Shown piece after piece: positions 5,546 through 46,314 of a stretch of DNA of 53,592 bases. The stretch's first letter is position 1; each line of letters opens with the position of its first letter. A model generated the notes under the pieces. It did no database searches. It was not told the DNA's origin and worked only from the letters and a program-made list of their open reading frames with translations. A program made the translations under genes and the position numbers. Source of the DNA: Anaerolineales bacterium (GTDB lineage Bacteria; Chloroflexota; Anaerolineae; Anaerolineales; UBA11657); NCBI GenBank assembly GCA_036011785.1, contig DASCOB010000158.1, positions 1-53,592 on the forward strand, written 5' to 3'.

Positions 5546-6504
5546 GTTCGGTGGTCGCGCTGGCGGGCGGGGTCGGCGGCGCCAAGATGGCGCAAGGTCT
5601 CGCTGCAGCGCTTGGCCCCGGACGGCTGACCGTGGTTGTTAATACCGCCGATGACTTCGAACACCTAAGCTTGCACATTTCACCAGACCTCGACACTGTC
5701 ATGTACACCCTGGCCGGCTTGCAGAATGCGGAAACCGGATGGGGGTTGGCCGACGAGAGTTGGCATTTTCTGGAGGCGTTGGAGCGATTGGGTGGAGAAA
5801 CTTGGTTTCGGTTGGGAGACCGCGATTTGGGCACGCATGTGGAGCGCACCCGCCGTCAGCGGGCGGGAGAAAAATTGAGCAGCATCACTGAGGGTTTCTG
5901 CACGCGTCTGGGTGTGGCGGCGCGGGTGCTGCCGATGAGCGATGACCCGGTGCGCACCGTAGTGCACACGGATGCCGGCCCCATTCCATTTCAGGAGTAT
6001 TTCGCGCTCCGAAAATGTCGGCCTGCGGTACGTGGGTTTGAATTCGAGGGCGCCGACGCGGCGGAGTTCCATCCGTCGGCGGCGGCCGCGCTGCAGGCGG
6101 GTGACTTGAGTGCAGTGCTGATCTGCCCCTCCAACCCGTACGTTAGTATTGCGCCCATTCTGGCACTGACCGGTGCGCGAGAATATCTGCGCACTACCGC
6201 GGCGCCGGTGATCGCAATCTCGCCAATTGTTGGCGGCGCGGCGCTGAAAGGACCGGCGGCAAAGATGATGCGCGAACTCGGCGAGAATGTATCCGCGGAA
6301 ACTGTGGCTGTGCAGTATGCCGACTTGCTGGATGGATTCGTGCTTGACCGGTGCGATGCCGCCGAGGCTGAGGCCATCCGGGCGCGTGGGATGCGCGTGC
6401 TGCTGGCCGACACCGTGATGCGCACGAGTGCCGACGAGGCGCGCCTGGCCGCTGAAATCTTGGCCTTCGCCGGGGAATTTGCCCGCGCGCGGGTGCGTGT
6501 TTGA
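5536..6504 (+). CDS. cofD: 2-phospho-L-lactate (or EPPG) transferase CofD/FbiA
   Basis: 322 aa. Contains VVALAGGVGGAKMAQGL, DLDTVMYTLAG, WFRLGDRDLGTH and ICPSNPYVSIAPIL, the canonical CofD motifs. Confidence 0.85.
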   Translation: MDLGSVVALAGGVGGAKMAQGLAAALGPGRLTVVVNTADDFEHLSLHISPDLDTVMYTLAGLQNAETGWGLADESWHFLEALERLGGETWFRLGDRDLGTHVERTRRQRAGEKLSSITEGFCTRLGVAARVLPMSDDPVRTVVHTDAGPIPFQEYFALRKCRPAVRGFEFEGADAAEFHPSAAAALQAGDLSAVLICPSNPYVSIAPILALTGAREYLRTTAAPVIAISPIVGGAALKGPAAKMMRELGENVSAETVAVQYADLLDGFVLDRCDAAEAEAIRARGMRVLLADTVMRTSADEARLAAEILAFAGEFARARVRV

Positions 6505-7124
6505 TGGCCACATGGGCGGTTGTTCCCGTGAAACATCTCAAGGCGGGAAAGAGCCGGCTGGCCACTGTGCTCTCGCCGCAAGCGCGTGAGGGGTTCAGTA
6601 GAGATATGCTCAGGCGCACCGTGGGCCTGCTGGCACGCTCCAGCGTCATCGAGCGCACACTGGTGATTAGCCGCGATGCAAGCGCATTGCGGCTGGCACG
6701 CGAACAGGGTGCATTTACTGTCAGCGAACCCAGCGCCTCCGAACTGAACGGCGCGCTGCAGAAAGCGACTCAGGTGGCGGCTTCGCTCGGGGCAACGGGC
6801 GTGCTGGTGTTGCCCAGTGACCTCCCGCTGTTGGGTGAAAACGACGTGGAGGCGCTGGCCGGAGTAAACGGCGCAGAGCGCATCGTTGTGCTTGCCCCGG
6901 ATCGCCACGGCACCGGCACGAACGCGCTATTCGTGCGGCCACCGGGTTTGTTGCGCTATCGGTTCGGGGCGGGCAGCCTGGCCGCCCACCGGCAGCAGGC
7001 GCTCAGTCAGGGCGCAGCGGTACGCGTCCACCGACTGCCCGGTGTGGAGTTTGATGTGGATGAGCCTGCGGACCTGCACAGATTGCAGTCGATGAAAGCG
7101 GAATTAGGAGACGCGGAGGGATAA
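6504..7124 (+). CDS. cofC: 2-phospho-L-lactate / PEP guanylyltransferase CofC/FbiD
   Basis: About 206 aa. [16 protein letters not shown] and VLPSDLPLL..., plus the size, are typical of CofC. The ATG at 6504 overlaps the cofD stop (TGATG). Confidence 0.8.
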
Positions 7125-7128
7125 AGCC

Positions 7129-8121
7129 ATGGAGCGAGTAGCGCTGTACCTGCAGGACGCCCATCCTTTGCAGGATGGCATCAATTACGCTCAGTATGCG
7201 GAGAAGAAAGGCTTCGAAGCCGTGTGGCAAGCGGAAAGCCGCCTGGTGCGCGATGCGATTGTGCCGATGGCCGCGTTTTCGGCCACCACCTCGCGCTTGA
7301 AAGTGGGTTCCGGGGTAATTAACAACTGGACGCGCAACATCGGCCTGTTGGCTTCTACATTCCTGACTCTGGATGACCTTGCGCCAGACCGGATCATTTG
7401 TGGGATTGGCGCCTGGTGGGATCCGCTGGCGGCAAACGTGGGCATCCGACGCCGAAAACCGCTTCAGGCTATGCGTGAGACCGTGCAGTTGCTGCGTCGG
7501 CTGCTCGCTCTGGAAAACGTGACTTTTTCCGGAGAGTTCCATCAGGTGCGTGGCATTGAATTGGATGTGGTGCACGGACGGCGCGAGCCGCGTAATGTAC
7601 CCATTTACATCGGCGCGACTGGGCCCAAGATGATGGAGTTGACCGGCGAAATCGCAGATGGCGCGGTATTGAACTATTGTGTGCCGCCTGAATATAATGA
7701 TCGGGCGCTAGAGCGGTTGGCGGCTGGCGCAAAGCGCGTCGGTCGTTCTCTGGATGAGATTGATCGCCCGCAATTAATCGTTTGTTCCGTCCACGGAGAC
7801 CGCGCCGAGGCGATTCGGGGCGCGAAATGGTTGTTGACGCAATACCTGGCGCAGCAACCGCATATTGCCGAGGCCTCTGGGGTGAGCGCTGAAATTGTCC
7901 AGAAAGTACAGACGATCATCGGATGGCCGGCCACCAAAGAGCAGGTGGAAGAGGCGATGCAATTTGTGCCCGATGATTTTGTGCTGCGCATTAGCGCCAC
8001 CGGCACTCCGGAAGAAGCGCGCGCCCGCGTGCAGCAATACATTGAACGTGGGTGCACCTGCCCGATACTCTACCCGCTGGGCGACCCCTATCTGATGATG
8101 GACACCTTCGCGGTCAAATAG
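7129..8121 (+). CDS. LLM-class (luciferase-like) F420-dependent oxidoreductase
   Basis: 330 aa. Contains [28 protein letters not shown] and [24 protein letters not shown], matching the luciferase-like monooxygenase / Mer-like pattern. RBS GGAGGG. Confidence 0.75.
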
Positions 8122-8242
8122 CGCGCTGGCGCCCCGGAGTTTATTCCAATACCCCCCCCAACCCGCTGCCGACCTTAAGGCTGCAGCGCAGCATCAAGGT
8201 CGGCGCGCTGGCGAGCTACCGAGAGCTGCACGTGGATGCGCG
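7988..8242 (+). repeat. Direct repeat copy A (3' end of the LLM gene, the spacer, and the 3' end of convergent kbl)
   Basis: Aligns by eye with 10643-10899. In the 43 shared LLM codons there are 9 nt differences, 5 synonymous and 4 replacements. The spacer and kbl part has a few small indels. Confidence 0.85.
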
Positions 8243-8330
8243 CCTGTCCCTTGGGCACCACCGGGTAGGAGAATCTGACCATATCCATGCCAAGTTCCAG
8301 TAGGTGGTCAGACATTCGCTGCCCACAGGG
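8175..8330 (-). pseudogene. kbl: Remnant of the 3' part of kbl (2-amino-3-ketobutyrate CoA ligase / glycine C-acetyltransferase), tail frameshifted
   Basis: The C-terminal half of ORF 8175..8438 reads ...RMSDHLLELGMDMVRFSYPVVPKGQARIHVQLSVARQRADLDAALQP. The PVVPKGQARIR.Q.SAAH block is the conserved Kbl/BioF-family C-terminus. There is no N-terminal 300+ aa, and the tail is cut short relative to copy B. Confidence 0.6.
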
Positions 8331-8531
8331 TTTATCTTCTAGCGGATAATTTCGATAATTGTTGAATTGAGCGGCAAACTCACAAATTGTTTCACGAAAC
8401 TTCGCTACTTCCTTGAAAGGTCGGCACATTTCACACATGAATTACTATCAATATGATCTATGAATGTGATTGTAGATTCGACACAAGCGTGAAAATGTTA
8501 TATTAAATCGCATTATTAAAAGCAGCAATCA

Positions 8532-8559
8532 TTGTCACTTTTGTCACGTGCGATATAAT
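8532..8559 (+). promoter_or_regulatory. Sigma70-like promoter for the radical SAM gene
   Basis: TTGTCA (8532-8537), 16 nt spacer, TATAAT (8554-8559). This places the transcription start downstream of the first ATG (8558) and favours the GTG at 8588, which follows GGAGAA. Confidence 0.4.
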
Positions 8560-8587
8560 GCAGATAAGGCCATCGGAGAAATTGGTT

Positions 8588-10261
8588 GTGAAAGTACTTT
8601 TTATTTATACAGATATTGGTATCTCCGTCGGCTACTCTTGTGGTGTTGGGGCCTTGTCTGCCTACTTGAGGAAGAAGGGTCATGACACCAAACTACTGCA
8701 TGTTTCTGATGAATTAAACTATGGACTGGATGTTGAAAAAATAGTCGCAGACGTGGAAGAATATGATCCTGGACTCATCTGTTTTTCCGCGGTCACTAAC
8801 CAATGGTTCTACGTAAAAATAATCGCTAAGTTGATCCGACGCAATTGTAATATTCCTATAGTTGTTGGTGGTCACCATGCCAATGCAGCCCCAGCTGAAA
8901 TAATTGAAGAGGAAGCGGTGGATTTTGTGTGTAAGGGAGAAGGAGAGAGGCCCCTGCTTGAACTGGTTGAGAAGCTAGAAGCCGGTGAGAATGTCCATCA
9001 TGTTCCAAACATGCTGGTAAAAAAAAGAGGTTATTGCAACGACACGATTGAGATGAAAGCAGAAAGTGTAACGGTTGAGCCTGTTGGAGTAACTGACACT
9101 TCAAGTTCTGATGGCTCATCCGGCGAATCTATCAAAGACACCACGACTTACCAACTTAGTGACGGAACAGAGATTGTCGATAATCCGGTAGGTCGATGGG
9201 TGGATGATCTCGACTCCTTGCCTTTTGAAGACCGTGACATCTTCAACTACAGGGAAATTGTAGATTCTCGACACGGTTGGGCTGAAGTCATCGCTACCAG
9301 AGGCTGCCCTTATACGTGCGCCTACTGTTTTAACATTCCGTTCTTTGATATGTACAAGGAAGACCTACGAAACACTGGTGATGCCGTAAAAATGAAGGAC
9401 TTCATCCGTAGAAGGGGTGTTGAGTCTACCATTGCTATGCTAAAAGAAATCATAGAGGAGTATCCTAACGTAAAATACTTCACCTTTGTCGATGACGTTT
9501 TTGCAATATACACCCCGTGGCTTGCCGAGTTAGCCCCCGTTTATAAAAAAGAAATCGGATTGCCATTTGCTGCCACCTCGCAACCGCTGGCATTTAATGA
9601 AAGAATCGCTAGAATATTGCAGGAAATGGGCTGCAAAGTTGTGAAAATGGGCGTTGAAGCTGGTAATCCAGACCTTAGAAATCAGGTGCTAAACAGAGGT
9701 ATTCCTGATCGGGTGTTAATTGACGCGTTCAACATTGCACGCAAATATAACCTCAAGCCGCAGGCCTTCAACATGATCGGTCTACCTAGAGAAACCAACG
9801 ACAATATGATGGAAACAGTTAGGTTAAATGCTAAGTTGCGGGCTTATATTGTCTGGGTGTCCACGTTTATGCCATACCCTGGTACAAATCTATACACCTA
9901 TTGCCGAGACCAAGGACTAATGGATGAGACCAAATGGGATGGCGTGAAAAGCTATCGAGGCGGTTCTGTTCTAAACGAAACTAGTTTCTCCCGCCTAGAT
10001 CTCGAGAAAATGCGAGTGATGTTTCGCTGGCACCTTAATGTCGCATTGCAAAATGGTTGCTCTGAAACTTATGCGGCGGCTATCGCGGAACTTGATAGCC
10101 TCAGTGAAAAAGTTTGGATGTCTGGAGAAGCAGAAGAGCTTTGGCTTGAAAGAGAACCAATGCTGGACAAACAGTTCCGTGAAGTGCAGATCGACCATTA
10201 CGTTGGTAAGAAATATGTCAACATGTTGTGGGCTGAAGAATACAATTATGATCTTACTTGA
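8588..10261 (+). CDS. B12-binding-domain (class B) radical SAM enzyme of unknown specificity
   Basis: ORF 8558..10261. N-terminal Rossmann-like B12 domain: VLFIYTD...GALSAYLRKKGH, IVVGGHHANAAP and CKGEGE. Radical SAM cluster motif RGCPYTCAYCFN (CxxxCxxC, nt about 9305-9328). An S/T/D/G-rich stretch lies at about nt 9029-9193. Start is GTG 8588 (RBS GGAGAA) or ATG 8558. Confidence 0.8.
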   Translation: MKVLFIYTDIGISVGYSCGVGALSAYLRKKGHDTKLLHVSDELNYGLDVEKIVADVEEYDPGLICFSAVTNQWFYVKIIAKLIRRNCNIPIVVGGHHANAAPAEIIEEEAVDFVCKGEGERPLLELVEKLEAGENVHHVPNMLVKKRGYCNDTIEMKAESVTVEPVGVTDTSSSDGSSGESIKDTTTYQLSDGTEIVDNPVGRWVDDLDSLPFEDRDIFNYREIVDSRHGWAEVIATRGCPYTCAYCFNIPFFDMYKEDLRNTGDAVKMKDFIRRRGVESTIAMLKEIIEEYPNVKYFTFVDDVFAIYTPWLAELAPVYKKEIGLPFAATSQPLAFNERIARILQEMGCKVVKMGVEAGNPDLRNQVLNRGIPDRVLIDAFNIARKYNLKPQAFNMIGLPRETNDNMMETVRLNAKLRAYIVWVSTFMPYPGTNLYTYCRDQGLMDETKWDGVKSYRGGSVLNETSFSRLDLEKMRVMFRWHLNVALQNGCSETYAAAIAELDSLSEKVWMSGEAEELWLEREPMLDKQFREVQIDHYVGKKYVNMLWAEEYNYDLT

Positions 10262-10351
10262 TTATGCTTTACCCCCACACAATGATGTTAGTAGGTTTGG
10301 CCTCCCGACGAATTGACAAGGCAGCAAATTCACTCACTAAGGTAATAGGAT

Positions 10352-10609
10352 ATGCCAAATTGCGGTAACGGACATGTCATGAACGAGAGTTCCAGAAGCC
10401 GTACTATAGAGAGGGTTGAGGAAGTCGTCTATACTAAGCAAAAAATAAAGCATTTCGATCGCAATGGCTCAGAATTCTGGCAAGAGACCAATGTTCCAGA
10501 CCTAGTTGAGAAGGAGGTCAAGCTCGACAGCGTGGTATATGTGTGCGCTATCTGTGGCGAGACACAAACGGTCACGGAAGAGCTGACCGAGCCGTCCAAC
10601 GTACCTTAG
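10352..10609 (+). CDS. Small hypothetical protein (85 aa) with a putative Cys/His metal knuckle
   Basis: Low-GC codon usage matches the neighbouring rSAM gene. It has N-terminal NCGNGH and C-terminal CAICGE (CxxC). The RBS is weak (AAGG/AGGA) and I recognise no family. Confidence 0.45.
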   Translation: MPNCGNGHVMNESSRSRTIERVEEVVYTKQKIKHFDRNGSEFWQETNVPDLVEKEVKLDSVVYVCAICGETQTVTEELTEPSNVP

Positions 10610-10642
10610 TTGTTTCTTTTCTCCGCGGCCAAGGTAATTGAA

Positions 10643-10899
10643 GCATTAGTGCTACCGGCACTCCGGAAGAAGCGCCCGCCCGCGTGCAGCAGTACATTGA
10701 ACGTGGGTGCACCTGCCCGATGCTCTACCCGCTGGGTGAACCCTATCTGATGATGGATACCTTCGCGGTCAACTAGCGCGCTGCCGCCCCGGCGTTTATT
10801 CCAACACCCCCAACTCGCTGCCGACCTGTTTAAAGGCTGCCAGCGCGGCGTCCAGGTCGGCGCGCTGGTGAGCTGCCGAGAGCTGCACGCGGATGCGCA
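10643..10899 (+). repeat. Direct repeat copy B
   Basis: See copy A. Offset is 2655 nt through the LLM-derived part. Confidence 0.85.
10645..10776 (+). pseudogene. Remnant of the last 43 codons of an LLM-class oxidoreductase gene
   Basis: Translates to [43 protein letters not shown]. The intact gene has [43 protein letters not shown]. An in-frame TGA lies immediately upstream at 10639-10641. Confidence 0.8.
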
Positions 10900-10990
10900 C
10901 ATCGTTAGGGCGCAGTTCCAGCAGCGGGATTTCTTGCAGCTGCAGGCCCGCACCGGGTTCAGGTTTCATAAGCGCTCGTAAGGTCTGCAT
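10796..10990 (-). pseudogene. In-frame fusion of a tdh 5' remnant (about 31 codons) to a kbl 3' remnant (about 33 codons)
   Basis: The 64-aa ORF reads MQTLRALMKPEPGAGLQLQEIPLLELRPNDV|RIRVQLSAAHQRADLDAALAAFKQVGSELGVLE. The first part is the classic N-terminus of L-threonine 3-dehydrogenase. The second part is the Kbl C-terminus. Confidence 0.65.
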
Positions 10991-11007
10991 ATATCCCTAC
11001 CGGTTAG

Positions 11008-11169
11008 TCAATCGCTCTCGCGAGAGCGCAAGTCTGTTTGCGCGGGTATCAAAGCCTGGTCGAGGTCGGCGATTATGTCGTCGGGATGCTCGCTGCTCAC
11101 ACTCAGGCGGACAAGATTGTCGGGCACCGCGGCCATTTCCCGATCATATCTTTCCCGGCTGGCGGCACA
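11008..11169 (-). pseudogene. 3' remnant of a MetY-like (O-acetylhomoserine sulfhydrylase family) gene
   Basis: My translation gives ...SRERYDREMAAVPDNLVRLSVSSEHPDDIIADLDQAL.... The intact paralogue at 12787..14166 has ...SGRELAEVPDHLIRLSVGGEHFDDIIADLDRAL. The remnant is closed upstream by an in-frame TAA. Confidence 0.55.
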
Positions 11170-11296
11170 TTACGTCCCAGACCGAAAGCTCCTTGTCGTC
11201 CGCACAGGTGCCGCCTTCGATTTTGGTAGCTGGAGGCGGCGCCTGTGCCCCTGACGGAGCCTACCGGGAAACTCATTGAGTCAAGCTCAGTGCCTG

Positions 11297-11923
11297 TTAA
11301 GCCGGCTTGCGCGCGATGCCGCGTACGGTCGGCCGCAACACCGGCGCTGCTTTGCGCATGCATTCTCTGGTCACCGCCTCGATGACGAAACCGGCGGCGA
11401 GAATGGCGCTGGTCGTGTGCCGGGCGAGATGGCAATTGCCGGCCACCCGCTTCCAGACTGGCTGCAGGCGGCGTTGCCATCTCAGCCGGCGGGGGCGCTC
11501 TTCGGCGGCGACATGTTCGAGAAAGACAAGACCACCGCCGGGTGTAAGCAACTGGTAGATTGCCGCCAGCGCTGCCGTCAGATCTGCTACCGAGCAGAGC
11601 ACTAGCGTGGCGACGACGAAATCAAAGGATTCATCTGGCAAATCCAGCTTCTCTAGCGCGCGGTCAATGATGTCCACGCTGTTGGTGCGCCCGGATGCGG
11701 CCAGCTTTTTCGACAGTTTCCTGCGCATGTAGCGGTCGGGCTCAACCAGCACCAATCGCTCGATGGCGGGTGGGTAGTGAGTCAGGTTGGCGCCCGTGCC
11801 TGCACCCACTTCTATAATATCGCCGCGCACTCCGGCGAGCAGACTTGCCCGCCAGTCTTGCAGGCATGCCTGCTCGCTCCGGCGCGTAAAGCGGTCGTAT
11901 ATGGCGGCTCCCAACCACGACAT
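11297..11923 (-). CDS. Class I SAM-dependent methyltransferase
   Basis: 208 aa. Motif I is DIIEVGAGTGANL, followed by the acidic loop LVLVEPD and then FDFVVATLVLCSV. Confidence 0.75.
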   Translation of the reverse strand: MSWLGAAIYDRFTRRSEQACLQDWRASLLAGVRGDIIEVGAGTGANLTHYPPAIERLVLVEPDRYMRRKLSKKLAASGRTNSVDIIDRALEKLDLPDESFDFVVATLVLCSVADLTAALAAIYQLLTPGGGLVFLEHVAAEERPRRLRWQRRLQPVWKRVAGNCHLARHTTSAILAAGFVIEAVTRECMRKAAPVLRPTVRGIARKPA

Positions 11924-11929
11924 CAGTGA

Positions 11930-12250
11930 TTATTCCCGGCCCAATTTGACGGCAGTTCCGTACGCCAGCAACTCCGCTGCACCTTGCATCACAGCGGACG
12001 TGGTGAAGCGCACGCAGACAACCCCGTTAGCCCCTCTGGTTCTGGCGTCAGCAATCATTCTGTCTAGGGCCTGCTCGCGCGACTCGGCCAGCATTTTCGT
12101 GTATTCCTTGATTTCACCGCCCACCAGGTTTCTCAACCCGGCGAGGATATCCTTTCCGACGTGTCTCGCTCGAATCGTGTTTCCCTTGACCAACCCCAGA
12201 GTCTCTGTTATTTCTCTATCTGCGAATTCGTCTTGAGTCGTGATCAGCAT
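11930..12250 (-). CDS. ybjQ: YbjQ/UPF0145 family protein
   Basis: MLITTQDEF..REITETLGLVKGNTIRARHVGKDILAGLRNLVGGEIKEYTKMLAESREQALDRMIADA...GANGVVCVRF is the canonical YbjQ sequence pattern. The ATG at 12250 is preceded by AGGAGGTG. Confidence 0.8.
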   Translation of the reverse strand: MLITTQDEFADREITETLGLVKGNTIRARHVGKDILAGLRNLVGGEIKEYTKMLAESREQALDRMIADARTRGANGVVCVRFTTSAVMQGAAELLAYGTAVKLGRE

Positions 12251-12259
12251 GCCCACCTC

Positions 12260-12463
12260 CTATTTTTTTACTGTGGAAGAATAGTGGTCGTCCTCTGTGT
12301 TGCCCAGTCGGTCCTTGATGACCTTCGCCAGCAGAAAACCGATTCCGAGAATGGCCGCCAGCCCAATCACCCCAGCCGGGAATGCGGCAATTGACTCGGC
12401 GATGATAGCGGCAATCCAGGCGACGGCCACAATTGCCAGTAGAACGTATCCGATGTTTTCCAT
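12260..12463 (-). CDS. Small two-helix membrane protein (67 aa)
   Basis: ORF 12260..12505. I prefer the internal ATG at 12463 because AGGAGA lies 7 nt upstream. It has two hydrophobic segments, YVLLAIVAVAWIAAIIA and VIGLAAILGIGFLLA. Confidence 0.5.
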   Translation of the reverse strand: MENIGYVLLAIVAVAWIAAIIAESIAAFPAGVIGLAAILGIGFLLAKVIKDRLGNTEDDHYSSTVKK

Positions 12464-12786
12464 GTCTGAGTCTCCTGTCTCCCACTCACTGATCAGCACT
12501 GCCATTTCGGCGGGCCAGTGGCAAGGGTGAGAAAGCCGCTAATGCGCGCCCGTGGGTTCGCAGCCTTGAAAAAAGAAACCGTACATCTTTCACGTTTTCA
12601 GAATTATTGATGCCGCCTGCCTTCGTCTCACCTAGGATGTCCATTTGCATTACTATAATGCCAGAGGCAACGCAACACAACACGTCATAAGCCGTGAGTT
12701 CACGGCGCAACATAGAGCGCAGACATTATGTGGCTTGAGAATTTCGCGCTGTGCCGGAAGTTGCTCCCGTGCGCACCGCGCTGGCT

Positions 12787-14166
12787 TCACGCGCTGGTCA
12801 GTGCACGGTCGAGGTCAGCGATTATGTCGTCAAAGTGTTCGCCGCCCACGCTTAGCCGGATGAGGTGGTCGGGCACCTCCGCGAGCTCGCGTCCGGATTT
12901 GCCCTGCTGCTGATGGGTGGAAATGGCTGGAATGGTGGCGATGCTCTTGATGCGCCCTAAATCTGTGGCACGCCAGATGAGCTGCAGGCGGTCGAAGGTG
13001 GCCCGCGCCGCAGCTGCCCCGCCGCGCACGGTGAAGCCCATCAGGTGGCCGTATCGATTGAGCGGAGCGCCGCCTTCGAGCGCGCCATCGACCAGCCACA
13101 TCTGCTGGGCTGCCAGCGCGTAATCGCGCATGCTTTCCAGCCCGGGGTATAAGGCAGTCTCGACCTGTGGATGGTTGCTGAGAAAGCGTGCCACCTGCAT
13201 TGTGTTGCGACTGAAAAGATCCATTTTGCTGCGCAAGGTACGCAGGTCGTTCATGATCATTGTCGCGCTGAACGGGCTCAGCCCCGGGCCGTGGTCGCGG
13301 CCCGGGTGCAACTTCACGTATCGGGCGAAGTCCTCGCGCATTTCATCCGGGCCGATGCGGCTGGGCAAATCGTGGCGCGCAATCAACGCACCGGCAATCG
13401 CCATGCCGCTGCTGGTAATGGTCTTGCTGAGCGAATGCACCACTATATCCGCGCCGTAGCAGAGCGGACGCAGCAGCGCTGGGGTGGCGACGGTGCTGTC
13501 AACAATTAGCGGGCACCCGTGCTCATGCGCCTGCGCCGCCACTGCGGCGACATCCAGCATCGCCAGACCCGGGTTGCTGGGCAACTCGCCGTACAGGAAA
13601 CGCGTGTTCTCGTCAATCTGACCGGCCCATTCCTCCAGATTGAGTGGATCACGCACCCAGCGAATCTCCACCCCGCGTTCTGCGCCATAGCGTTCCTCAA
13701 AGAGCGTGAAGGTACCGCCATAGCATTTGACGCTGGCGACGATGTTCATTGGCCGGCTGCCGGAAAGAAACGGATTGGTCGCCATGAAAACTGCTGCCAT
13801 CCCTGAAGCGATTACGCAGGCGCTGGTCGCGCCTTCATAACCATAACCTTCCAGCAGCGCAAGAGTCTCCTCGAGGAAATGCTGCGTTGGGTTTGCGACA
13901 CGGCTATACGCCCAGGCCGGCATCAGGTAGGCGAGGGCCGCCTCCATGTGGTTGCTGTTTTCAAAATGTTGCGCCGAGCTGAGGTACGTTGGTTCGATAA
14001 TGCTGCCCTGATTGGCTAGCGCTGCCTCCATGCCGTATAGGCCGTGCACGGCGATTGTGTCGAATTTCATCGCGCGCATAGCAGCGCGGCGGGATTCCTC
14101 TGCGGATGTCAGCGCTTCGCCGCGCTGAATGTATTCCTGCACTCCGGGAGAGTATGTGTTTGTCAT
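12787..14166 (-). CDS. metY: O-acetylhomoserine/O-acetylserine sulfhydrylase family PLP enzyme (MetY-like)
   Basis: 459 aa of the Cys/Met-metabolism PLP family. Contains DIVVHSLSKTITSSG (PLP-lysine region) and ATIPAISTHQQ...LIRLSVGGEH at the C-terminus. Confidence 0.75.
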   Translation of the reverse strand: MTNTYSPGVQEYIQRGEALTSAEESRRAAMRAMKFDTIAVHGLYGMEAALANQGSIIEPTYLSSAQHFENSNHMEAALAYLMPAWAYSRVANPTQHFLEETLALLEGYGYEGATSACVIASGMAAVFMATNPFLSGSRPMNIVASVKCYGGTFTLFEERYGAERGVEIRWVRDPLNLEEWAGQIDENTRFLYGELPSNPGLAMLDVAAVAAQAHEHGCPLIVDSTVATPALLRPLCYGADIVVHSLSKTITSSGMAIAGALIARHDLPSRIGPDEMREDFARYVKLHPGRDHGPGLSPFSATMIMNDLRTLRSKMDLFSRNTMQVARFLSNHPQVETALYPGLESMRDYALAAQQMWLVDGALEGGAPLNRYGHLMGFTVRGGAAAARATFDRLQLIWRATDLGRIKSIATIPAISTHQQQGKSGRELAEVPDHLIRLSVGGEHFDDIIADLDRALTSA

Positions 14167-43935: not shown

Positions 43936-44329
43936 AGCGGTTGTCGGAATTAATGGGTGCGAAAGAACCGGAGCAATGGGTTCGCGGAGACGGATGGGGA
44001 TTTGGCGAGGAGAGATTGGGCTAACGTCGAGCTCAGCGGCGGACGGCGAATCTGTCGCACTATTTCTTTCTGTTTCACAAATCATCATTTATTCTCAAAA
44101 TATTTGAATCACCCGCCAAGTTGGCCGTCCGGTAGAGTGATGACTATACAATTGATTGTTCGAGAGTTTGAAGAAAACTTCCTGGCTCAAACAAAAAATT
44201 GTTATCATAATAATGGCAAGAATCCAAGAAACTCCCGAACCCTTTTTTATCATATGGACCAGCATACATTCCAAACCTAACCAAACCAGTATCAAACCAA
44301 ATGAAACATTTGCGCTCCCTTGATGGCTG

Positions 44330-44338
44330 TGCTATAAT
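44330..44338 (+). promoter_or_regulatory. Extended -10 element (TGcTATAAT) upstream of nusA
   Basis: TGCTATAAT at 44330-44338 in an AT-rich gap. There is no well-spaced -35. Confidence 0.35.
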
Positions 44339-44373
44339 TCGGCTAGCAAGGGGTTAGGAATTAGCGTATGTCG

Positions 44374-44406
44374 GAGAAGTGGGTGAACCCCGCTTCTCTT
44401 TTTTTT
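44374..44406 (+). terminator. Strong intrinsic-terminator-like hairpin in the nusA leader (candidate attenuator)
   Basis: GAGAAGUGGG (44374-44383), loop UGAAC, CCCGCUUCUC (44389-44398). This is a 10 bp stem including one G-U pair, followed by T8 (44399-44406). It ends 40 nt before the nusA ATG. Confidence 0.6.
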
Positions 44407-44445
44407 GCCCGCACCTGCTGATTACAATCAGGAGAATATGGCACC

Positions 44446-46314
44446 ATGAAAAGCGAATTTACACTGGCTTTCAACGAAATCGCGGAACGCAGCCACCTCG
44501 ACCGCGAGACCATAGTCGAGGCTTTGGAGTTAGCGTTGGTGCAAGCGTACCGAAAGTCGGTCACCGCATCGGAGGCGCAGGAGATTTTGGCTCGGGTGGA
44601 CCCCGAAACCGGTCAGGTGTCCGTATTTGCTGAGAAAGAAGTGGTGGATGAGCCGCAGGATGACCGCACCGAGGTCGGTCTTCACGTGGCACGTGAGGTG
44701 GCGTCAGAGGCACAGTTGGGAGATCTGTTGACGGTGGATTCAACCCCGACCGGTTTCGGCCGCATCGCCGCGCAAACCGCCAAGCAGGTCATCTTGCAAA
44801 AACTCAAGGAAGCGGAGCGCGAGAGCCAGTATCTGGAATTTGTCGAACGCGAGGGAGACATCATACACGGCACGGTGCAGAGTTACGGCGCGCAGGGGGT
44901 CACCCTTTCGCTTGGGCGTGCCGAGGCGCAAATGCCGCGTAACCAGCAGATGCCCGGTGAGCGCTATCGCACCCATGAAAAGGTGCGTTTCTATGTGCTG
45001 GAGGTGCGAAAAACCTCGCGCGGTCCGCAGATAATCGTCTCGCGTACGCACCGTAATCTGTTGCGGCGTTTGCTGGAGATGGAAGTTCCGGAGATTTACA
45101 ACGGGGTAGTGGAAATCAAATCGATTGCGCGCGAGGCTGGCTACCGTTCCAAGGTGGCGGTGGCAGCGATGCAACAGGGCGTGGATCCGGTCGGCGCGTG
45201 CGTCGGCATGCGCGGTATGCGTATTCAGTCCATCGTGAAAGAATTGCACGGCGAGAAAATCGATGTGATTCAATGGAACCCGGATGTGGCCACATTTATT
45301 TCCAAGGCGCTCAGCCCGGCGCGGGTGGCTAGTGTGCATTTGGAAGACGCCTCCGTGGAGGGGCGCACGGCCACGGTCATCGTGCCCGACGACCAGCTCT
45401 CGCTCGCAATAGGGCGCGAGGGCCAGAACGCCCGCCTTGCAGCCAAGTTGACCGGCTGGCGCATCGATATCAAGAGCATGGCCGAGGCCGCGCGTGAGGC
45501 AGTGGAGCTGCTGCAGGATGATGAGCGTTATGCAGACCTTGCGCCACCGTTGCAGGCCGAAATGGAGCGAGCCGGAATCACGCTGACGAAAATGGCCGAA
45601 AACAGGCCGGTGATGCCGGAGGAATACACCACGCTGAACACGCTTGTGGATGTTGTCGAGCAGCGCCGCCTTGAAATGCAGGCCACCGAGCTTGCTGAAA
45701 GAAGAGCGACGCTGGAAGCGGTGCGGGCCAGCATCCCCGTGGCGGCTTACGCGTGTTCGTTGCGGGATGCCGAAGTGCTTACCGAGGGGCTGCGGACCAC
45801 CCTTGAGGAAGCCGATTACCAGAGCGTTGGTCAGGTTATGGAAGAACTTGCCATGGACCCCGACGCGATTCTGGCACTGCATGGCGTTGGCCCGAAAGTG
45901 TTGGAAAAGTTGTTGGGCACACTCACTGAATTGGCGGCCGTCTTGCCCGAACCTGCACCTGAGCCCGAACCGGAAACGGAAGCTGAAACGGTGGCTGTGG
46001 AAGAGGCGGCTGATGCTGAGGTGTCAGCGGCCGAGCTCAGTGCTGAAACCGAACTCGCAGGGGAGATAGAGGAGCCGGCGGAGGCCGAAGCGGGAATCGC
46101 CGAAGAACCTGCTGTTCGGCCGGTGGACGCGCCCGTTCCGGAAGATTGGCAGGAAGAGGAGCCGGACATTGACCAGCTGTTGAATTCGAAGCAGAAAAAG
46201 CAAAAGCGGCGTAAGAAGCGTACCGTTGTCTTTGATGATGAGCGCGGCGTGTTTGTTACCTCGCACGCGCACAAGCGCGATGCCGACCAGTTTGAATGGG
46301 ACGAGGAGTTATAG
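44446..46314 (+). CDS. nusA: Transcription termination/antitermination factor NusA with a long acidic then basic C-terminal extension
   Basis: 622 aa. N-terminal domain, S1 ([10 protein letters not shown]), KH1/KH2 ([56 protein letters not shown]), HhH-like region, then an [13 protein letters not shown]... tail and [11 protein letters not shown]. Confidence 0.9.

Follow-up and report, generated by a model that had tools for sequence, protein, structure and literature searches.

A foreign two-gene islet between decayed duplicates of host gene ends in an uncultivated marine Anaerolineales population

The contig DASCOB010000158.1, part of a metagenome-assembled genome (MAG) labelled Anaerolineales bacterium (GCA_036011785.1), was analysed over its complete length of 53,592 bp (hereafter the window) and carries a foreign, low-GC islet of about 2.3 kb that encodes a cobalamin-dependent radical S-adenosylmethionine (SAM) enzyme and a small partner protein. 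The islet lies between two diverged direct copies of one host segment, which is made up of the 3' ends of two convergent genes, one for an LLM-class F420-dependent oxidoreductase (the LLM gene) and one for glycine C-acetyltransferase (kbl). The arrangement is probably the product of an old additive recombination, either Campbell-type or otherwise duplicative, that was followed by decay of the redundant gene ends and then by deletion of the neighbouring operon of kbl and the L-threonine 3-dehydrogenase gene tdh. The host is an uncultivated deep-sea population of marine Anaerolineales, whose closest species-level genomes are Anaerolineae MAGs with LLM sequences that are 90% and 87% identical.

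Results

Composition and integrity of the islet

In windows of 200 nucleotides (nt), the GC content falls from approximately 0.60 to 0.36–0.48 between positions ~8300 and ~10600. For the islet proper (8326–10642) it amounts to 0.438, compared to 0.610 ± 0.017 in the contig's remaining windows of 2317 bp (z = −9.9), and the tetranucleotide L1 distance is 0.618, compared to 0.195 ± 0.020 elsewhere in the contig with a maximum of 0.258. A first-pass annotation of the sequence had placed the edges of a low-GC islet at about 8320 and 10640, and both statistics bear this out. The GC content at third codon positions (GC3) of the radical SAM gene is 0.44, that of the neighbouring genes 0.65–0.73, and the radical SAM protein has no relatives with an identity between 100% and 71%. 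On the grounds of the deviating GC content, tetranucleotide composition and GC3 together with this identity gap, the islet is foreign DNA.

The same arrangement, with both junctions spanned, was found by exact-protein look-ups on more than 30 contigs from independent samples deposited at JGI, ENA and NCBI or belonging to Tara. These were built with different assemblers (MEGAHIT k119/k141 contigs as well as SPAdes-style NODE contigs), and the long contigs of the islet lineage are 99.9–99.99% identical to the window across 8–20 kb. As both junctions are spanned in so many independently assembled contigs, an assembly artefact is excluded. The first-pass annotation had named in advance three observations that would speak against a foreign islet, namely an artefact of assembly, a lack of compositional deviation and native composition in relatives, and none of them was made.

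Two copies of one host segment flank the islet

Two direct repeats, copy A (7988–8242) and copy B (10643–10898), were detected both by seed extension and by alignment, at the positions and with the content described before. In the same orientation, each comprises the last 43 codons of the LLM gene, a 19-nt spacer and the 3' end of kbl. The insert is therefore flanked by a collinear direct duplication of one contiguous target segment, running from LLM codon 288 through the stop codon and the spacer into the kbl 3' end, that is present as a single copy at the empty site. The copies differ by 19 substitutions and 3 indels over ~256 nt (~93% identity) and constitute one of only two families of direct repeats of at least 60 nt within 10 kb in the whole window. 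The LLM parts differ at 9 nt, of which 5 are synonymous and 4 cause replacements (R>P, I>M, D>E, K>N), exactly the earlier count. The small indels reported for the kbl part number three (+3, −4 and −1 nt) and are all private to copy A, which also carries 6 private substitutions in its kbl stub relative to all other alleles; as had been noted, the kbl tail of copy A is frameshifted, and it is these three indels that cause the frameshift. The earlier view that the repeats represent neither a simple target-site duplication nor a recent tandem duplication holds.

The observation that each copy keeps something that the other lacks is correct and provides the key clue to the origin of the locus, but the part of it that placed copy B beside an intact kbl has to be dropped, because neither side retains an intact kbl. 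No full-length open reading frame (ORF) for Kbl, which has 396 amino acids (aa) in relatives, is left in the window. The NCBIfam glycine C-acetyltransferase model matches only remnants, covering model positions 328–381 at copy A and 360–393 at copy B, where the remnant is fused to tdh and the remainder of the operon is missing. The LLM gene, which lies downstream of cofD and cofC and whose end forms the left part of copy A, is intact, and the identical LLM protein is encoded on islet-bearing and on empty-site contigs. A terminator-like hairpin with a T-tract follows the LLM stop codon in copy B (10782–10794) and in all other alleles, while its counterpart in copy A (8127–8140, after the live LLM gene) has been destroyed by two private substitutions, so that LLM transcription may read through into the islet.

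Anatomy of the three joints

At the left end of the islet, positions 7145–8275 of the window are collinear with the empty-site contig L011 and nearly identical to it (6 differences), and the last site specific to one host allele to the left of the crossover, judged from the islet-bearing contig L004, is position 8233. The first differences from the empty-site sequence occur at 8276, 8279, 8282 and 8285, all of them third codon positions. Past 8275 there are 22 further kbl codons in frame, with ~60% nt identity to the host kbl, and in a tblastn search residues 330–384 of the empty-site Kbl aligned without gaps to 8342–8178; the similarity to kbl ends at 8342. Given this passage from near-identity to an in-frame kbl sequence of only ~60% nt identity, the left joint is a homeologous in-frame crossover in the conserved FSYPVVPKGQARI box between the host kbl and a foreign gene of the kbl family.

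The right joint (10642/10643) has the appearance of an illegitimate one: homology to copy A begins abruptly at 10643, and no LLM-like reading frame is found upstream. A homeologous crossover with a foreign LLM gene was also considered for this joint, as the conserved ISATGTP motif is located there, and was rejected, since the 33 nt upstream contain an in-frame stop codon and show no similarity to LLM genes.

The third joint lies at the outer end of copy B. In the intact locus the 14-mer GCGCATCCGCGTGC occurs twice, in tdh (where it encodes part of VRIRV) and in kbl (ARIRV), at a distance of 2038 bp (positions 7051 and 9089 of contig L119). In the window it occurs once, exactly at the fusion of kbl' and tdh', so that 2038 bp of kbl-tdh were lost by recombination or slippage between the 14-bp direct repeats. 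What is left is a chimeric ORF of 64 aa with NCBIfam matches to positions 1–36 of the L-threonine 3-dehydrogenase model and 360–393 of the glycine C-acetyltransferase model, which is a pseudogene remnant of the tdh-kbl operon. The kbl tail of copy B still encodes the canonical C-terminus (…RIRVQLSAAHQRADLDAALAAFKQVGSELGVLE), which suggests that kbl probably stayed alive to the right of copy B for much of the period of decay and was deleted later.

Complementary decay of the two copies

The differences between copies A and B were polarised with L019, an outgroup species, and the intact sister lineage as references. In the LLM part (134 nt), 1 derived change is assigned to copy A and 7–8 to copy B, whereas the kbl tail has 6 derived substitutions and all 3 indels in copy A and at most 2 derived changes and no indel in copy B. 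The asymmetry thus changes direction from one half of the repeat to the other (Fisher p = 0.005 when indels are included, 0.015–0.05 when they are not), and the dead halves, i.e., the kbl stub of copy A and the LLM stub of copy B, are each changed by ~6%. The LLM stub of copy B carries 9 private substitutions, and the live LLM alleles sampled in the three lineages described below (islet, intact and deletion) have none of them (0/9). Three of its four replacements (R298P, I313M and D319E) affect conserved positions and introduce residues that are absent from 80 homologues.

Copies A and B have 3 derived sites in common relative to the sister lineage, and on this basis the LLM part of each copy seems to be related more closely to that of the other than to any further allele. 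The simplest interpretation, as judged from ~250 nt, is that both copies started out nearly identical and that each of them later lost only the half that had been detached from a working gene. As almost all polarised changes are confined to the non-functional half of each copy, a diverged donor strain would not be needed. Two origins had been offered in the first-pass annotation. The old duplication that has since decayed gains support from the LLM changes private to copy B and from the kbl-tail indels and 6 substitutions private to copy A. Import from a related strain that already carried the cassette fares worse, with the LLM variants of copy B found in no live allele and no diverged donor called for.

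Three alleles of the site and their exchange between lineages

Two further forms of the locus were found besides the islet form. In the intact form (contigs L119–L128), the LLM gene is followed by convergent kbl (396 aa), tdh (349 aa) and a methyltransferase gene; its kbl product (P0241) is encoded on at least 55 contigs. The empty site that had been predicted for relatives, the LLM gene followed by convergent kbl-tdh, was thereby found, with the repeated segment in single copy. Because the order cofD-cofC-LLM with convergent kbl and tdh has been kept in five other Anaerolineales species, it is the ancestral one. In the deletion form (L129 and L131–L138), the LLM gene, the 19-nt spacer and a fused kbl'::tdh' stub follow one another without an islet. 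The stub protein of this form is encoded on 18 contigs; of 10 shown, 9 are without the islet. The three forms represent sister lineages with 86–94% nt identity, and all of them occur in the dataset JGI 3300048637 (islet form on L010 and L104, intact form on L124, deletion form on L135). The islet and deletion forms are present together in JGI 3300035202, and GCA_024711645/665/725 likewise contain more than one form.

The stub of the deletion lineage has diverged by 9–12% from that of the window. In the right flank, this lineage resembles the intact lineage (91–94%) more closely than the islet lineage (86–88%). The deletion between the 14-bp repeats therefore probably occurred at least twice, a single old shared deletion being the alternative. 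Derivation of the deletion-only form from the islet form by recombination between copies A and B was rejected, as its flanks belong to another lineage.

Several contigs are mosaics. Contig L004 has the islet form and differs from the window at 84 positions, all of them left of 8234; its copy A matches the allele of the intact lineage, and its whole LLM gene differs as well. L006 (MPMB02174753.1) is identical to the window up to 10806 and continues with the stub of the deletion lineage, the switch lying within a 42-nt identical stretch of copy B, and L003 has a foreign patch at 11705–12119. In L132 (ENA ERZ27245234 k141_135254), a left flank of the intact lineage with the cofD/cofC deletion is joined to a stub of the deletion lineage. 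L132 and L006 are real inter-lineage recombinants or, less likely, assembly chimeras. L011 has the backbone of the intact lineage and carries the LLM gene and copy A of the islet lineage. Its live kbl (1563–2714; product P0247, found on 2 contigs) ends in the frameshifted tail of copy A (…RIHVQLSVARQRADLDAALQP) and encodes 384 instead of 396 aa; apparently, the pseudogene stub has overwritten the end of a working kbl in a sister lineage by recombination. It is thus the flanks, not the islet, that have been shuffled among the sister lineages by homologous recombination. A recent sweep specific to the islet, which would leave an invariant islet between diverged flanks, was considered and discarded: the islet-lineage contigs are at least 99.9% identical across 18–20 kb, and the diverged flanks of L003, L004 and L006 go back to local patches of sister-lineage DNA.

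The lineages also differ further upstream. The intact lineage (L119 10208–10528; likewise L011 and L120–L128) lacks 1262 bp corresponding to 5716–6978 of the window, so that the beginning of cofD runs into the end of cofC in a fused ORF of 106 aa; this deletion lies at a 7-nt microhomology, CTGGCCG. The intact lineage has hence lost intact cofC and cofD (F420 biosynthesis) yet retains the F420-dependent LLM gene, whereas the islet and deletion lineages have kept cofC and cofD and lost kbl-tdh.

Proposed origin and alternative explanations

From the ancestral order of the locus, the following history is proposed. A fragment of ~2.37 kb from an organism with lower GC content, composed of a short kbl-family remnant, a promoter of its own, the gene for the B12-dependent radical SAM enzyme and the small partner gene, would have entered by recombination alone, without the aid of a mobile element. 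One end would have joined the host kbl through the homeologous in-frame crossover in the most conserved box of this gene, and the other would have joined illegitimately at LLM codon 288, upstream of the first joint. Since the two joints are in inverted order on the target, the 250–290 bp between them (LLM end, spacer and kbl end) would have been duplicated on either side of the insert. Such a product could result if a circularised fragment that carried a piece of the target recombined with the chromosome by a single crossover, i.e., by Campbell-type additive integration, or if an incoming fragment bridged two sister chromosomes. No gene would have been broken initially, with LLM whole on the left and kbl-tdh whole on the right. 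The redundant halves would then have decayed in a complementary fashion, copy A in its kbl stub and copy B in its LLM stub, after which the 2038 bp of kbl-tdh would have been lost between the two 14-bp direct repeats, leaving the chimeric stub, and the flanks would have been shuffled among sister lineages. The circular intermediate and the order of insertion and deletion are what we infer from these traces.

Several points weigh against this history, which we nevertheless consider the probable one. The expected intermediate, with islet, copy B and intact kbl-tdh, was not found when the radical SAM protein, the small ORF, the methyltransferase and the fused stub were each looked up by exact match, and all 23 contigs that were read for the small ORF (23/23) have the fused stub. 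Insertion before deletion is suggested by the kbl/tdh stub of copy B, which looks less decayed than its LLM stub, but is not supported at significance by the numbers of changes (8/134 versus 2/103, p = 0.11; 8/134 versus 7/209, p = 0.19), and a deletion-only allele with an identical junction exists in another lineage, so that the deletion might be the earlier event or might have passed from one lineage to another. The polarisation uses segments of 100–134 nt in a species complex with abundant recombination, and with 4 replacements among its 9 changes, 5 being synonymous, the LLM stub of copy B has fewer replacements than pure neutral decay would lead one to expect. Finally, the donor is unsampled (nearest relative 71% identical at the aa level), so that neither the source of the foreign kbl fragment nor any microhomology at the right joint can be checked.

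Among the alternatives, deletion of kbl-tdh first, followed by import of DNA that already carried the cargo from a same-lineage genome in which kbl was still present, appears unlikely, though it deserves to be taken seriously. Copy A would then be the donor's and copy B the recipient's, with a homologous anchor in the LLM gene and an illegitimate join at LLM codon 288 of the recipient (homology-facilitated illegitimate recombination with duplication). Such an order would agree with the commonness of the islet-free deletion allele with the same junction and with the fact that no islet form with intact kbl-tdh was found, and the structure of L006 is what an exchange between islet and deletion forms would be expected to produce. 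However, the kbl tail of copy B would have been dead for longer under this order, yet it shows at most 2 derived changes, no indel and an intact frame, compared to 7–9 changes in the LLM stub. Moreover, the known deletion allele belongs to another lineage, as its diverged stub and right flank indicate, and is therefore not the recipient, and an additional polymorphic donor genome would be required, none of which was observed. Rather improbable is the reading that homologous recombination brought in the islet together with copy B from a related, diverged strain, in which case the differences between A and B would simply reflect strain divergence. Sister lineages that are 86–94% identical do co-occur and exchange DNA at this locus (L004, L006, L003, L011 and L132), the A–B divergence of ~7% falls within the range between lineages, and 5 of the LLM changes in copy B are synonymous. 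Nevertheless, the absence of all nine LLM variants of copy B from the live alleles, the residues unseen in 80 homologues at three of the four replaced positions and the frameshifting indels among the private changes of copy A are at odds with it, and strain divergence does not predict that the asymmetry flips between the halves of the repeat. A scan of metagenome contigs with 30-mers specific to copy B found no live LLM gene with its variants and matched only an islet-bearing contig, which is weak evidence at most, as the collection was clearly incomplete and, without the bulk of the relevant assemblies, uninformative on this point.

We regard it as very improbable that a mobile element (integrative island, transposon or phage remnant) was inserted site-specifically and that the repeats are its attachment sites, even though direct repeats do bracket a compositionally foreign segment. 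The repeats consist of ~256 bp of ordinary host coding sequence with no short attachment-site (att) core. As already remarked in the first-pass annotation, no integrase, transposase or att-like inverted repeat is apparent: the annotated flanking genes (~8 kb upstream and 9 kb downstream) include no integrase or transposase and are all metabolic or housekeeping genes, no tRNA or tmRNA gene is present in the 53.6-kb contig, and inverted repeats are lacking. The cargo has no significant PHROGs match, the cargo genes of relatives reside in chromosomal exopolysaccharide loci rather than in elements, and the left joint is an in-frame crossover from gene to gene. A chimeric assembly, or a repeat that was collapsed or expanded in the MAG, might be suspected because the window is a MAG contig and its source environment holds mixed strains, but the more than 30 independent contigs that span both junctions, at 99.9% identity or more to the window over up to 20 kb, leave it next to no credibility. 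Additive recombination followed by decay and deletion hence remains the reading that we prefer.

Cargo genes

The coordinates of the islet, its joints and the flanking features are compiled in Table 1. The predicted promoter in the non-coding leader is near-consensus, with 11/12 matches. The longest ORF of the radical SAM gene (8558–10261) would begin with an ATG inside the predicted −10 box, whereas GTG 8588 is preceded by GGAGA at a distance of 8 nt and corresponds to the start of the 557/559-aa product used by most gene callers; GTG 8588 is more likely the real start. The product has an N-terminal B12-binding domain (PF02310, 7e-19, residues 26–136) and a Radical_SAM domain (PF04055, 6e-19, residues 245–423) with CPYTCAYC as its CxxxCxxC motif, and it stays below all NCBIfam equivalog cut-offs (HpnJ, BchE, AprD4 and RiPP methylase; the best score is that of HpnJ, 101.8 versus 577.6 bits). 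Its nearest non-self homologue is 71% identical, its relatives are spread across many phyla, and among proteins of solved structure the closest in sequence is AprD4 (8e-14), a sugar diol-dehydratase.

Genes for 48–64% identical homologues of the small protein directly follow the radical SAM gene at three distinct homologous loci. A confident single-sequence AlphaFold2 model of the small protein (predicted local distance difference test, pLDDT, 87) is a long beta-hairpin, and a fold search of the PDB gave no match beyond generic long beta-hairpins at E > 0.03. Three loci with 66–71% identical orthologues of the enzyme encode, in this order, the radical SAM protein, a protein of 78–85 aa, a Rieske protein and an amine-oxidase-like flavoprotein, and at these loci the block adjoins genes for an epimerase and a polysaccharide exporter. 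An orthologue from Nitrospirota that is 48% identical is encoded between exporter–epimerase genes and genes for an amine oxidase, a sugar transferase and Wzy. The orthologue blocks (L014 6001–9881, L015 6001–8574, L016 6001–9770 and L144 3761–12843) lie within exopolysaccharide loci with exporter, epimerase, Wzz/Wzy and glycosyltransferase genes, in hosts with a GC content of 37–63%. By tblastn, no remnants of the Rieske, amine-oxidase or epimerase genes were found anywhere in the window. The cargo enzyme is accordingly proposed to be a cobalamin-dependent radical enzyme for exopolysaccharide or sugar modification, and it would seem that only the first two genes of an exopolysaccharide-locus module were transferred, together with a promoter of their own.

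A literature search on the cluster of radical SAM, Rieske and amine-oxidase genes gave no match, and neither did an Rfam search of 7900–11400 at permissive thresholds, which included cobalamin riboswitches. An origin of the cargo from a defence system or a phage was rejected, as the PADLOC and PHROGs matches were insignificant.

Table 1 Features of the islet locus in the window
Feature	Coordinates	Strand	Evidence and remarks
LLM-class F420-dependent oxidoreductase, 330 aa, intact	7129–8121	+	Pfam Bac_luciferase 1.4e-66; NCBIfam F420 LLM families
Direct repeat copy A	7988–8242		Live LLM 3' end (7988–8121), spacer, decayed kbl 3' stub
Left crossover interval, kbl FSYPVVPKGQAR box, identical in host alleles	8234–8275	−	Host-type sequence on the left, foreign on the right
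Foreign kbl-like fragment, residues ~330–352, GC 0.49	8276–8342	−	In frame with the host kbl stub
Non-coding cargo leader, GC 0.36	8343–8587	+	Sigma-70-like promoter TTGTCA-16-TATAAT at 8532–8559; GGAGA Shine-Dalgarno sequence at 8575–8579
Cobalamin-dependent (class B) radical SAM enzyme, 557 aa from GTG 8588	8588–10261	+	Pfam B12-binding and Radical_SAM; CPYTCAYC
Small partner protein, 85 aa	10352–10609	+	Invariant C4, H8, C65 and C68; predicted long beta-hairpin
Final 33 nt of foreign DNA	10610–10642		Right joint 10642/10643 abuts LLM codon 288
Direct repeat copy B	10643–10898		Dead LLM stub (10645–10776), 19-nt spacer with hairpin (10782–10794), clean kbl tail (10796–10898, minus strand)
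Chimeric 64-aa ORF, tdh codons 1–~33 fused in frame to the last 33 kbl codons	10796–10990	−	NCBIfam, tblastn, translation
Sole remaining 14-bp repeat GCGCATCCGCGTGC, coding for RIRV	10885–10898	−	Marks the kbl-tdh deletion junction

A second duplicated gene end and another low-GC stretch

The other family of direct repeats in the window consists of a stub at 11049–11142, which holds the last 35 codons of a pyridoxal phosphate (PLP)-dependent enzyme of Cys/Met metabolism, and the end of the live gene at 12798–12891. The stub lies 59 nt upstream of the tdh start and shares 73% (nt) and 69% (aa) identity with the live end (E = 4e-13). This pair, which lies beside that of the islet and represents an older gene-end duplication, brackets a block with genes for a methyltransferase and YbjQ and two small ORFs (11143–12797, GC 0.58) in an architecture like that of the islet; the two pairs are the only direct repeats of at least 60 nt within 10 kb in the contig. 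Elsewhere in the window, a ~500-bp stretch of lower GC content (43940–44445; 0.52 per kb) without a convincing ORF is situated upstream of a nusA-like gene (44446–46314) and is probably a long leader or intergenic region.

Discussion

The islet locus offers an unusually complete natural record of gene gain and gene loss at one site without a mobile element: empty, islet and deletion-only forms coexist in the same ocean samples, the joints are legible at base resolution, and the two halves of the repeat provide two independent measures of decay of ~6% each. Long, diverged direct repeats derived from host gene ends can thus signal additive recombination rather than a mobile element or an artefact. 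The locus also illustrates that a 14-bp repeat common to adjacent genes suffices to remove an operon, probably more than once, and that a decayed stub can recombine back into the live gene of a sister lineage. For annotation, it follows that the pseudogene stubs and the chimeric ORF at this site should not be called genes.

As the only two families of direct repeats of at least 60 nt in the contig are adjacent and have the same architecture, it is conceivable, if doubtful, that cassettes between duplicated host gene ends are a recurrent route of gene gain without mobile elements in marine Anaerolineales. If it were true that circularised chromosomal fragments, delivered for instance by vesicles or gene-transfer-agent-like particles, routinely integrate through single crossovers, decaying gene-end stubs would constitute a legible fossil record of this process in uncultivated genomes.

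Comparison with known systems

The type of event is already known, i.e., horizontal gene gain without a mobile element, a duplicated target, decay of pseudogenes and repeat-mediated operon loss, and no new kind of system is involved. With genomic islands and integrative elements, the islet has in common a compositionally deviant cargo between direct repeats and a presence/absence polymorphism among close relatives. In contrast to islands with att repeats, however, it has no integrase, no tRNA target and no short att core, its repeats are long, diverged and composed of two host gene ends, and its cargo amounts to two genes with a promoter of their own.

HpnJ, BchE and AprD4 have the same N-terminal B12-binding domain and radical SAM core with CxxxCxxC as the cargo enzyme, which differs from them in scoring far below the curated cut-offs and in being paired with an uncharacterised Cys/His beta-hairpin protein of 80–85 aa. 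The orthologous modules elsewhere have Rieske and amine-oxidase partner genes that are not found in the window of this host. It is conceivable, if doubtful, that the radical SAM enzyme and its Cys/His beta-hairpin partner form a self-sufficient new enzyme pair that has been kept as useful.

Campbell-type additive integration by a single crossover, which is also seen with suicide plasmids, resembles the proposed origin in that no target gene need be disrupted and no site-specific recombinase is involved. A further likeness is the duplication of a few hundred bp of target on either side of the foreign DNA, which is ~250–290 bp long here. During conjugation in Escherichia coli with one homologous arm, in experiments designed to detect homology-facilitated illegitimate recombination (HFIR), 56 of 60 integrants had arisen by a single crossover of a circular molecule, and the target duplications flanking the foreign DNA in 14 sequenced integrants measured 109–950 bp (PMC3240628). 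The islet differs from these experiments as a natural event in an uncultivated Chloroflexota population, for which a circular intermediate is proposed, in the fusion of the homologous segment to the cargo through the homeologous kbl joint and in the decay of the duplication by 6–7%.

HFIR during natural transformation likewise combines one joint anchored by homology or near-homology with an illegitimate one and can bring about kilobase gains without a mobile element. Its second joint is formed at a microhomology of 3–10 bp, whereas no homology is seen upstream of 10642/10643, a joint at which microhomology is not scorable without the donor sequence. The 2-kb loss of kbl-tdh has a separate cause and separate end points, given by the 14-bp direct repeat. 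Classical HFIR replaces a similar length of recipient DNA, whereas at this locus the anchor has the illegitimate joint on its "wrong" side. Since the segment between the joints was duplicated rather than replaced, classical HFIR fits the islet less well than Campbell-type integration does.

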